Assembly: GCA_963696295.1 (NCBI GenBank)
Contig: CAVOJR010000001.1
Location: forward strand, 2,400,001 to 2,464,000
DNA from: an uncultured Chlamydiae bacterium
GTDB taxonomy: Bacteria; Chlamydiota; Chlamydiia; Chlamydiales; JAJFMB01
DNA length: 64,000 nucleotides
Direction: 5' to 3'
Below the pieces are notes generated by a model. It was not told where the DNA came from. It worked only from the letters and a program-made list of their open reading frames with translations, and did no database searches. The translations under genes and the position numbers were made by a program. Below, piece after piece: positions 39,081 through 40,178 of the stretch; within the stretch, counting starts at the first letter, position 1; every line of letters begins with the position of its first letter.

Positions 39081-40178
39081 ATGAATATTTCCAACGATAA
39101 TTTAACGATAAAACTTTTCATTATTGAAAAAAATAAAATTGATGATAAAATTTTAGAAACACGCCGTTTCAACATCGCTTCTTCAGTAACCTATGAGATT
39201 TTCAAAAATATGCTTAATGTGTACTGCAAGGATGCAAAAGTTTCGGATAAATTCGTTTTCAAATACATCGATAGTGAAAATGACGAAATCACGGTCGATA
39301 GGGAAGAAGATTTTAAGATGATGATGGAATATCGAAAAACAAAAAACACTATTCAAGCCAAAATTTATACTTTTCCACTTACTCGTGATCTTCCTAATAG
39401 TATGCCTATTGCAGCAACAACAGTGAAGCCTTCAATTAATTCCAAATCTAATACCTCTCCTTCAGCTCCAATACCTTGCGCTGTTGCCAACAAAGCAGAT
39501 CCAATTCCTTTTGAGAAAAAAAACACCCAAGAAGAAGGCAGTATTGCCAATGGAAATACCAAGCAATACAATTGCGTCATCATCAAAAACAGCGTCGAGA
39601 CTCCCCCAGAAACACTGTTGCCAAATCAGCAATTCAAACACACTTGGCGTGTCAAAAATCAGTGGACTCGTTCTTGGGACCCCTCCTGTCATCTTGTGTT
39701 TGTTGGCGGCAAGAATGGCAAGCAAATAATACCGGATCTTATCTTGAAGAAGAATATTTTTGATCATAAAATTTCTCCGCAAGAAGAGGTGGATGTGAGT
39801 GTAGATTGTGTTGCTCCTGGCCAAGAGGGCAATTATTTCGGTTGCTGGAAATTAATATCTGAAGATGGTCATACATTTGGTCCAATGCTTCAAATAACAG
39901 TCAAAGTCAGCAACTCGAATTCAAATATTACTCCCACATTTATTGAACAACATCGCGATGTGTGGATCGATGAGCTCAAAAGGTTGAGCGATTTAGGATT
40001 TAGAGATAAAAACAATGATAGAATGTACCGCGATTTGCTTTTCCAAAATGATGGAAAAATCGAGAATGTCATTGCTAAATTGCGCCAGGAGAATGTAGTA
40101 AATAAAATTAAGGAAAACGATTTTAAAAGTAGAGTTCGCAATGCTAAAGGATTCCTAAAAAAGGAAGATGGAATATAA
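39081..40178 (+). CDS. NBR1-like protein: PB1 + FW (NBR1 Ig-like) + UBA domains
   Basis: PB1: TIKL...ETRRF...KYIDSENDEITVDREEDF. FW: FKHTWRVKN..RSW...LVFVGG...PQEEVDVSV..APGQEGNY.GCWKL...GHTFG. UBA: WIDELKRLSDLGF...DLLFQNDGKIENVIAKL. SD AAGGA; no introns. Confidence 0.85.
   Translation: MNISNDNLTIKLFIIEKNKIDDKILETRRFNIASSVTYEIFKNMLNVYCKDAKVSDKFVFKYIDSENDEITVDREEDFKMMMEYRKTKNTIQAKIYTFPLTRDLPNSMPIAATTVKPSINSKSNTSPSAPIPCAVANKADPIPFEKKNTQEEGSIANGNTKQYNCVIIKNSVETPPETLLPNQQFKHTWRVKNQWTRSWDPSCHLVFVGGKNGKQIIPDLILKKNIFDHKISPQEEVDVSVDCVAPGQEGNYFGCWKLISEDGHTFGPMLQITVKVSNSNSNITPTFIEQHRDVWIDELKRLSDLGFRDKNNDRMYRDLLFQNDGKIENVIAKLRQENVVNKIKENDFKSRVRNAKGFLKKEDGI

Follow-up and report, generated by a model that had tools for sequence, protein, structure and literature searches.

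The stretch of DNA analysed here (64,000 nucleotides, called the window throughout) comes from an uncultured Chlamydiae bacterium and carries a gene for a protein that joins a PB1 domain, an NBR1 FW domain and a UBA domain, in the order in which NBR1, a eukaryotic receptor of selective autophagy, has them. The gene is resident in the bacterial chromosome, and its capture as a whole from a eukaryote is well supported; an effect on the autophagy of a host cell can be proposed for its product. An earlier note, made from the sequence alone, had described an intronless gene with a bacterial Shine-Dalgarno sequence, and so it is: the open reading frame (ORF) runs uninterrupted over 365 codons and AAGGA stands 8 nt before the ATG. 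The coordinates of the gene, its domains and its neighbours are collected in Table 1.

The PB1 domain is found by sequence and by fold. Pfam matches residues 27-86, N-terminal to the FW domain (E-value 4.5e-9, 36.6 bits against a cut-off of 23.6), hhalign against the family profile gives 95.7%, and AlphaFold2 (AF2) models the region as a beta-grasp with predicted local distance difference test (pLDDT) values of 77-96. Foldseek returns the PB1 domain of NBR1 as the best match to this model (2bkf, TMt 0.74), followed by those of Cdc24, p62 (6tgy, TMt 0.65) and PKC-iota. The motifs on which the earlier note had based a basic face and an acidic OPCA motif are all in place: K11 (the beta1 lysine), R28-R29-F30, and an OPCA-like acidic stretch, YIDSENDEITVDREED, at residues 62-77. 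In the family alignment (A1), K11, R29, Y62, D64, E66 and D68 vary little or not at all, and we take the residues of the two faces to be the counterparts of K7, R21/R22 and D69 of p62. The domain is thus type AB-looking in its sequence pattern, carrying both a basic and an acidic face as p62 and plant NBR1 do.

The FW domain (N_BRCA1_IG) gives the strongest Pfam match of the protein (residues 178-276, E-value 1.2e-21, 77.7 bits against a cut-off of 28). A sequence search of the PDB finds the FW domains of ILRUN (E-value 1.2e-10), human NBR1 (3.9e-5) and fungal Nbr1 (0.002), and Foldseek places the model closest to the FW domains of ILRUN (6vhi, TMt 0.84) and NBR1 (4ole, TMt 0.80). Of the four tryptophans in the FW domain of human NBR1, three align to W189, W199 and W256 and the fourth to V208, which agrees with the three signature tryptophans counted previously. 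The whole-protein AF2 model (mean pLDDT 76, from a 26-row family alignment) consists of the beta-grasp at residues 7-97, disorder at 102-159, an Ig-like sandwich at 165-276, and helices at 296-304, at 310-322 and from 327. The Pro/Ser/Thr-rich linker is present as claimed, and it is disordered in this model over most of the stretch between PB1 and FW. The protein also lacks the ZZ zinc finger, as had been read from the sequence: Pfam gives no ZZ match at E-values up to 1 anywhere in the protein, and the linker (residues 98-162) is modelled as disordered.

Other tests were needed for the C-terminal domain, because neither Pfam nor a single-sequence search found a UBA there. Pfam UBA models, UBA_NBR1_C (PF24932) included, gave no match in the whole protein at E-values up to 1 or in residues 280-365 at E-values up to 10, under HMMER filters that may discard weak matches, and phmmer with the C-terminus as a single query returned only chance matches, no UBA, from the PDB. 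Residues 285-365 nonetheless match a profile of 25 relatives, built without the window protein, over residues 293-336 (hhalign 91%, E-value 1.1e-6); Pfam places UBA_NBR1_C at the aligned position in 18 of the 105 relatives scanned; and the family profile finds the NBR1 UBA among solved structures (2mgw, E-value 6.1e-8), along with several ubiquilin UBAs. An AF2 model of residues 285-365 (pLDDT 83.5) drew five Foldseek matches, all of them UBA-like, with modest scores (E-values of at least 1.9 throughout). In a VIA-align comparison with 48,161 chains, second place goes to the human NBR1 UBA in complex with ubiquitin (2mj5_B), with 52 of 52 residues aligned and a Z of 5.8, under the line of Z 8 below which a score can mirror a common helical arrangement; the Dsk2 UBA ranks fourth (Z 5.3, root-mean-square deviation 1.5 A). 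From profile and fold together, we accept the C-terminal domain as an NBR1-type UBA. What had been claimed as a UBA with an LSDLGF motif therefore stands in its motif (residues 302-307), its profile match and its NBR1-like fold, and fails in the Pfam match. The third helix runs on into the C-terminal tail, over residues 327-364 in the whole-protein model and 43-79 in the numbering of the fragment model.

Table 1. Features of the window: the PB1-FW-UBA gene, the domains of its product, its immediate flanks and its neighbours (positions count from the first letter of the window).
Feature	Position	Strand	Basis or remark
Coding sequence of the NBR1-like PB1-FW-UBA protein (P0001)	39081..40178	+	ORF list: intact, single ORF, ATG start, 365 aa and stop
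PB1 domain, residues 7-97	39099..39371	+	Pfam, AF2 beta-grasp, Foldseek, hhalign
Pro/Ser/Thr/Asn-rich linker, predicted disordered, residues 98-162	39372..39566	+	AF2 pLDDT <50 over 102-159
NBR1 FW (N_BRCA1_IG) Ig-like domain, residues 163-279	39567..39917	+	Pfam, PDB sequence search, Foldseek
NBR1-type UBA (accepted from profile and fold), three-helix bundle, residues 293-336, LGF loop 305-307	39957..40088	+	hhalign, profile, AF2, VIA-align
Lys/Asn-rich C-terminal helical tail, residues 337-365, extends UBA helix 3	40089..40175	+	AF2; without family match
Shine-Dalgarno-like AAGGA	39068..39072	+	Direct sequence reading; 8 nt before ATG
Inverted repeat, 16 bp, GC-rich	40319..40356	.	141 nt past the stop codon of the PB1-FW-UBA gene
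Short ORF with similarity to the N-terminal part of an IS3-family transposase (upstream mobile-element scrap)	38238..38546	+	NCBIfam transpos_IS3
Leucine-rich repeat (LRR) proteins	28346..29815, 42031..43371		Within low-GC run
PI-PLC-X protein	26675..28027		Within low-GC run
Legionella_OMP-family porin	34947..36014		Within low-GC run
MarR-GNAT fusion	48164..49165		Within low-GC run
Two adjacent ORFs, ~505 aa each, without Pfam family	21555..23072, 23082..24593		Within low-GC run

The residence of the gene in the bacterial chromosome is plain from its position. The window is positions 2,400,001-2,464,000 of a contig (C1) of 3,298,190 bases, in a two-contig assembly that is 97.4% complete and 1.5% contaminated, so that the gene lies about 2.44 Mb inside the contig, and the window ends in bacterial genes on both sides ([NiFe]-hydrogenase and hyp genes, an ATP synthase operon, glycogen phosphorylase, phosphoglucomutase). 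The embedding in bacterial DNA reported before is thus borne out. Protist host DNA or cDNA mis-joined into the chromosome by the assembly would explain a gene whose nearest labelled relatives are eukaryotic and whose GC content, at 36.2%, falls far under the genome mean (the 1.5th percentile of the 1364 mechanically called ORFs of at least 300 aa on the contig, mean 48.6%). Such an artefact is very improbable, however. Besides the position of the gene, degenerate repeats of both flanks (72-91% identity) recur at other places in this chromosome; the SD-like site precedes its ATG; no eukaryotic sequence exceeds 38% identity to its product among the 1.84 billion representatives searched; and a homologue is found in a second genome of the Chlamydiales (G222, described below), on a 230-kb contig and beside typA/bipA. 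The low GC content is moreover shared by several neighbours, among them the two LRR proteins, the PI-PLC-X protein and large ORFs without family match, and the gene is therefore part of a compositionally distinct cluster rather than an isolated insert.

A HMMER search of those representatives returned 3086 matches at E-values up to 0.001, none of them above the same 38% identity to the window protein. Pfam was run on 105 relatives (103 of the best 150 matches plus two cluster members). FW-only proteins of bacterial type, with 1-8 FW copies and often with Peptidase_M23, GDSL lipase, CARDB or Peptidase_C39_2 domains, make up 72 of them; 27 are proteins with PB1 and FW and without ZZ, mostly 310-510 aa long; four have the canonical NBR1 arrangement of PB1-ZZ-FW; and two are FW-UBA fragments. 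The closest relative by BLAST is P0011, a protein from a metagenome, and the best matches after it are full-length, collinear PB1-FW-UBA proteins such as P0063 (residues 26-334 against 38-341, E-value 2e-22) and P0087 (1-344 against 4-333). The nearest cluster in the ESM Atlas is a PB1+FW cluster (score 0.94, 212 of 256 features shared) that is 98% Eukaryota, with Oomycota the commonest group, and P0011 leads to the same cluster. In nine of the ten cases looked up, the contig that carries a PB1+FW relative is 1.0-1.6 kb long, roughly the size of a transcript; the tenth is P0011, on a contig of 5.8 kb. Because more than a quarter of the relatives scanned are likewise ZZ-less PB1+FW proteins, and the nearest labelled cluster is so largely eukaryotic, the missing ZZ was inherited and is not of bacterial design; ZZ-less PB1-FW-UBA is a eukaryotic type, and the bacterial gene therefore copies the architecture whole. 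The absence of ZZ is accordingly not to be read as part of a designed decoy.

Phylogenetic trees were made from FW domains only (about 111 columns), with multi-FW proteins represented by their best-scoring repeat. The first tree had 92 rows, comprising the window protein, 25 short PB1+FW proteins, the four canonical ones, two with PB1 and two FW domains, and the first 60 of 118 FW-only matches; the other 58 and the two cluster members were left out. In this tree the window protein pairs with P0011 (Shimodaira-Hasegawa-like approximate likelihood ratio test, SH-aLRT, 97) on a long branch that is not placed. Constraining the pair to the PB1-bearing clade yields a log-likelihood 41 units above that of the free tree and a p-value of 0.914 in the approximately unbiased (AU) test, with a constraint group that was partly defined after the tree was seen and that includes three FW-only rows lying inside the PB1-bearing clade. 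The second tree, of 57 rows, used 25 hand-picked bacterial, 23 eukaryote-type and 7 chlamydial sequences, one chlamydial ORF without an FW match having been dropped. Here the 25 bacterial multi-FW rows group together in a clade of their own (SH-aLRT 95). The window protein falls outside it; its nearest rows by path length are eukaryote-type and its sister is P0011 (SH-aLRT 91). The placement of the pair rests on the AU test and the second tree.

Short alignments and long branches notwithstanding, the FW trees fit a eukaryotic source, and they name no donor. The earlier note had expected the protein to nest within protist NBR1; the trees and the AU test favour the PB1-bearing, eukaryote-type side. 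Its broader claim of a host-derived, NBR1-type origin is upheld by the collinear relatives, the Atlas cluster and the FW trees together. On this comparison of sequences, it is well supported that the window gene is a whole eukaryotic NBR1-type gene, of the ZZ-less PB1-FW-UBA kind, captured by horizontal transfer; the donor was probably a protist.

The opposite direction, in which PB1-FW-UBA arose anciently in bacteria and passed to eukaryotes, has to be weighed against the distribution of the domains. FW domains are abundant in bacteria, as the large FW-only share of the relatives attests, and bacterial FW domains precede eukaryotic NBR1 according to the available part of a review (PMC9582228). 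A search of public genome contigs with the FW-UBA alignment (A4) likewise found 124 prokaryote relatives, most of them from Chloroflexota. All 80 that were listed, almost all from that phylum, match in the FW domain alone, however, and none extends beyond it. In the phylum sample PB1 turns up in 2 of 401 genomes, the window's own included, and FW in 5 of the 401; none of 14 control genomes has PB1 by this search, and a profile made from the window protein, P0011 and the G222 protein matches at full length in 2 of 400 genomes, the window's genome and G222. Together with the position of the window FW domain outside the bacterial multi-FW clade, these counts make a bacterial origin highly unlikely. 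PB1 and NBR1-type UBA domains, otherwise nearly confined to eukaryotes, entered the Chlamydiales at least once.

The window protein was found in none of 40 genomes of the same family or order, nor in the two other genomes of its own family. Alignment A3 found no match among public genome contigs, and scans of metagenome contigs with P0011 and with the FW-UBA alignment found none either. Three word-index protein searches returned, respectively, the protein itself alone, itself and P0011, and itself and the G222 protein. This last protein (P0153/P0157, 454 aa) comes from a different family of the same order and has the layout PB1-FW-2xUBA-like, which corrects the earlier note, to whose author no bacterial protein with all three domains was known. 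Its PB1 is weak (E-value 0.0037), its FW is divergent (Pfam E-value 1.8e-5, under the cut-off; branch length 2.74), and two UBA-like segments follow. It is collinear with the window protein over PB1 to FW (E-value 8e-4); with P0011, the collinear part extends from FW through both UBAs (E-value 3e-7). BLAST brings it no nearer to the window protein than to eukaryote-type proteins, and one capture and several captures are indistinguishable. On its 230-kb contig the G222 gene has typA/bipA as its neighbour on one side and, on the other, a stretch of effector-type genes; a 627-aa ORF without family match lies directly beside the gene, and within 6 kb are a YopJ-family acetyltransferase (PF03421, E-value 1.2e-11; L101 6030-7163 (+), G222:C2) and two LRR proteins. 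The window protein, P0011 and the G222 protein are thus three intact PB1-FW-UBA ORFs that are 21-38% identical and have each retained all three domains.

These intact ORFs bear on the view that the gene is a passenger, captured into a mobile low-GC region and either unsecreted, without a host-directed role, or decaying. The flanks of the gene do hold non-coding scraps and a weak IS3 fragment. The mention of insertion sequence (IS) scraps in the earlier note is weakly borne out by this fragment, an ORF that matches transpos_IS3 with an E-value of 0.0013 over model positions 2-53 of 369, with 18 bits that remain far under the cut-off of 160. Other genes of the same assembly are frameshifted (sctV and a PEP-utilising enzyme, both described below), and the lack of a match in the two other genomes of its family would suit a passenger as well. 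Yet the ORF is uninterrupted, is preceded by an SD-like site and retains the conserved core residues of all three domains; distant homologues of the same architecture, also intact, exist in G222 and as P0011; and with no more than 38% identity to every relative, long residence is indicated rather than recent capture. We regard a passenger gene as distinctly unlikely.

Three further genomes carry parts of the architecture. A genome of the same order (G376) encodes a 378-aa protein (L085 583-1719 (-), on G376:C143) with an N-terminal PB1 (Pfam E-value 1.1e-6) followed by an unrelated helical region without family match, which by its sequence is a second, different use of PB1 in the order. In a further genome of the order (G316), seven FW matches are spread over at least five ORFs of 263-662 aa (loci L086, L090, L091 and L092, and G316:C77). 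The FW domain is C-terminal in these ORFs and the N-terminal regions differ, two of the ORFs sharing an R.NRVS.GLERS.K.M.VF-like motif ahead of FW; the pattern suggests that FW-tagged proteins have expanded in this lineage specifically. A 387-aa ORF (L097, G138:C13:18134-21403), from a third genome of family f32, matches the PB1-FW-UBA profile from the UBA to the tail only (profile positions 296-386, E-value 2.4e-4).

The proteins most like the window protein are the eukaryotic ZZ-less PB1-FW-UBA proteins (the 78 members of the Atlas cluster 'putative UBA domain-containing protein', and metagenomic relatives such as P0052, P0063 and P0087), which have the same domain order and a similar length (318-397 aa). 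They align with it collinearly over the whole length at 21-31% identity and share with it the lysine of PB1, the acidic motif, the FW core and the GF loop of the UBA. The differences are a Pro/Ser/Thr linker where the eukaryotic relatives have a Lys-rich one, the lack of an 'ARFVK' lead-in to FW, LGF in the UBA loop in place of the MGF of most relatives, and the location of the gene in a bacterial chromosome. NBR1 of human, plants and fungi likewise runs from PB1 through FW to an NBR1-type UBA at its C-terminus, and the folds of all three (2bkf, 4ole and 2mj5) are matched by the window protein, which differs in having no ZZ and no canonical LC3-interacting region (LIR) outside its folded domains, in being less than half as long as human NBR1, and in its three of four FW tryptophans.

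A review defines an NBR1 homologue, in the part of it available, by an FW domain together with PB1 or ZZ (PMC9582228), and by that definition the window protein, having FW and PB1, is a bacterium-encoded NBR1 homologue, for which ZZ is not required. The same part of the review reports NBR1 homologues from five eukaryotic supergroups and FW domains in some bacterial proteins, and mentions no bacterial PB1-FW-UBA protein. ILRUN (C6orf106), whose FW domain is the best PDB match, also joins a UBA-like domain to FW; that domain precedes FW in ILRUN, which has no PB1, as far as the review's available text describes it (PMC9582228), whereas the window protein has the order PB1-FW-UBA and a UBA of the NBR1 C-terminal type. 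Bacterial multi-FW proteins, from Chloroflexota and others, have the FW/N_BRCA1_IG domain in common with it (about 30-39% identity), in 2-8 tandem copies with Peptidase_M23, GDSL lipase, CARDB or Peptidase_C39_2; they have neither PB1 nor UBA and occupy a separate clade of the FW tree. The G222 protein and P0011 are PB1-FW-UBA proteins like that of the window but have two UBA-like domains each, and the DNA of P0011 is unlabelled. In the part of the report available (PMC6488588), Rv1468c, a surface protein of Mycobacterium tuberculosis, carries a eukaryotic-like UBA, binds host ubiquitin and reportedly triggers xenophagy. It is thus a bacterial ubiquitin binder tied to xenophagy, but one without PB1 or FW and no copy of a host receptor. 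A full-text literature search, in which largely titles and the openings of abstracts were available, brought up no bacterial PB1-FW-UBA protein and no receptor mimicry as a tactic against autophagy.

Intracellular bacteria borrow eukaryotic domains, among them F-box, U-box, ankyrin and LRR domains, and the window gene would join the eukaryote-like effector genes of such bacteria; the facts of its sequence are robust and a mechanism is proposed. In the reading we prefer, a captured NBR1-type gene makes a protein that is exported to the host cytosol and there blunts selective autophagy. We hold this to be a serious possibility, somewhat short of an even chance. The protein would be delivered into the host cytosol, most plausibly by a type III system; its UBA would bind ubiquitin conjugates, its type AB-looking PB1 would dock on host PB1 proteins (a host NBR1-type receptor, for example), and its FW domain would bind a host partner. 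Assemblies of ubiquitin and receptor would then be occupied or capped in place of being passed to autophagosomes, and selective autophagy around the bacterium would be blunted. The genomic context is of the effector type, with LRR and PI-PLC-X genes in the low-GC cluster of the window and with a YopJ-family gene and LRR genes beside the G222 homologue. The genome encodes four TLC nucleotide transporters and has one locus for FHIPEP (SctV, the type III export gate), a gene content that suggests a chlamydia-like organism.

Blocking is the most likely net effect because a canonical ATG8-binding motif is missing outside the folded domains. Four [WFY]xx[LIV] cores occur in the protein (at F60, Y163, W256 and Y316), all of them in folded domains and with 0-1 acidic residues in the six positions upstream, and the disordered linker has none; the earlier statement that there is no clear acidic-flanked LIR therefore holds, as judged by a regular expression, to which non-canonical ATG8 binding would be invisible. 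The further idea that the eukaryote-type family conserves a LIR where the UBA begins, and that the bacterial copies lost it, was rejected, the core being there in only 8 of 25 relatives (three more have Met in its last position).

Several of these observations weigh against the proposed blocking role. The limit of the LIR search is one, and the scarcity of the core at the UBA start among relatives is another. The UBA itself was missed by Pfam and by phmmer, with modest Foldseek scores and a VIA-align Z under the caution line. The eukaryote-type relatives bear no taxon labels of their own, so that their eukaryotic origin rests on contig size and one Atlas cluster, and we know of no functional characterisation of the eukaryotic ZZ-less PB1-FW-UBA proteins. 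As to export, the PB1 fold begins at residue 7, which leaves no N-terminal extension, and the sole sctV locus (G000:C1:256120-258152, outside the window) is in three pieces in three reading frames (282, 212 and 383 aa), from either indel errors of the assembly or two real frameshifts in a damaged type III system.

The same modules could also serve to recruit rather than to block. A secreted bridge might draw ubiquitinated host material, membranes or the autophagy machinery to the vacuole of the bacterium, through UBA and FW or through a non-canonical contact of the ATG8 or TAX1BP1 type, for nutrients or for the remodelling of the niche. That all three NBR1-type binding modules are kept would suit such an adaptor, as would the FW domain of NBR1 being a partner and cargo module that binds MAP1B, TAX1BP1 and Ams1 (PMC9582228, available part); the FW domains fused to differing N-terminal regions in G316 suggest that FW serves as a targeting module in that genome. 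Against this stand the lack of a canonical LIR outside the folded domains, as far as the regular expression goes, and the doubt about secretion, which the three-frame sctV locus raises here as much as for blocking. We think an adaptor of this kind unlikely, if worth keeping in mind.

Within the blocking role we prefer, a stricter version is the decoy proper, which we also consider doubtful. An injected, LIR-less and dominant-negative protein would join or cap the PB1 polymers of the host's NBR1-type receptor, coat the ubiquitin on the vacuole and so uncouple the ubiquitin tag from ATG8, and FW modules would, to judge from the ORFs of G316, be reused in other effector-like proteins. Established routes of escape from xenophagy act on ATG8, on ubiquitin, or on receptors from outside. 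If true, the decoy would make receptor mimicry a mechanism against xenophagy, an imitation of the receptor itself and unlike those known tactics. The window protein consists of three small domains, each with clear predicted partners, and offers a natural LIR-less variant for work on PB1-driven receptor polymers. If it should not be secreted, the gene would still be a clean transfer of a whole gene from eukaryote to bacterium.

The immediate surroundings of the gene, which is single-copy in the genome, add smaller points. The inverted repeat downstream may be a candidate terminator hairpin; the scan scores it as terminator-like for the minus strand, and its plus-strand side trails only TTTGG. 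A promoter scan gave 8 promoter-like sites against 4.6 expected, none of them convincingly 5' of the PB1-FW-UBA gene, and no tRNA gene that could mark an island border lies within the 64-kb window. Pieces of the flanks (38154-38461, 38902-38985, 40696-40846 and 41446-41500) recur at 95-100% identity in contigs of two soil-metagenome runs from one study, in which 6-7% of sampled words were found; no RNA run is among those listed as sharing words with it. The matches cover flank pieces and not the gene itself, and they may be scraps of mobile elements or come from a related organism. A plasmid collection had no match to 20 kb of the second contig (C2), and DotI/IcmL was not found in the genome by a search that was positive in no control genome.

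The low-GC run that surrounds the gene extends over about 40 kb (15000-56000 of the window, GC 30-45%) between core regions of 52-57% GC and includes at least 8 ORFs of 300-1018 aa without Pfam family. Past its end, at 57587-59982, a PEP (phosphoenolpyruvate)-utilising enzyme is split into two ORFs in different frames, PPDK_N first and then the PEP-utilizers mobile and C-terminal domains, that meet at 58771. This may be another frameshift, and it and the one in sctV are either indel errors of the assembly or signs of decaying genes. Before the run, at 1-15772, lies a soluble [NiFe]-hydrogenase set (a diaphorase-like protein, small and large subunits, HycI protease and HypF/D/E), followed by a second ATP synthase operon, which together look like unusual content for a chlamydia-like genome.

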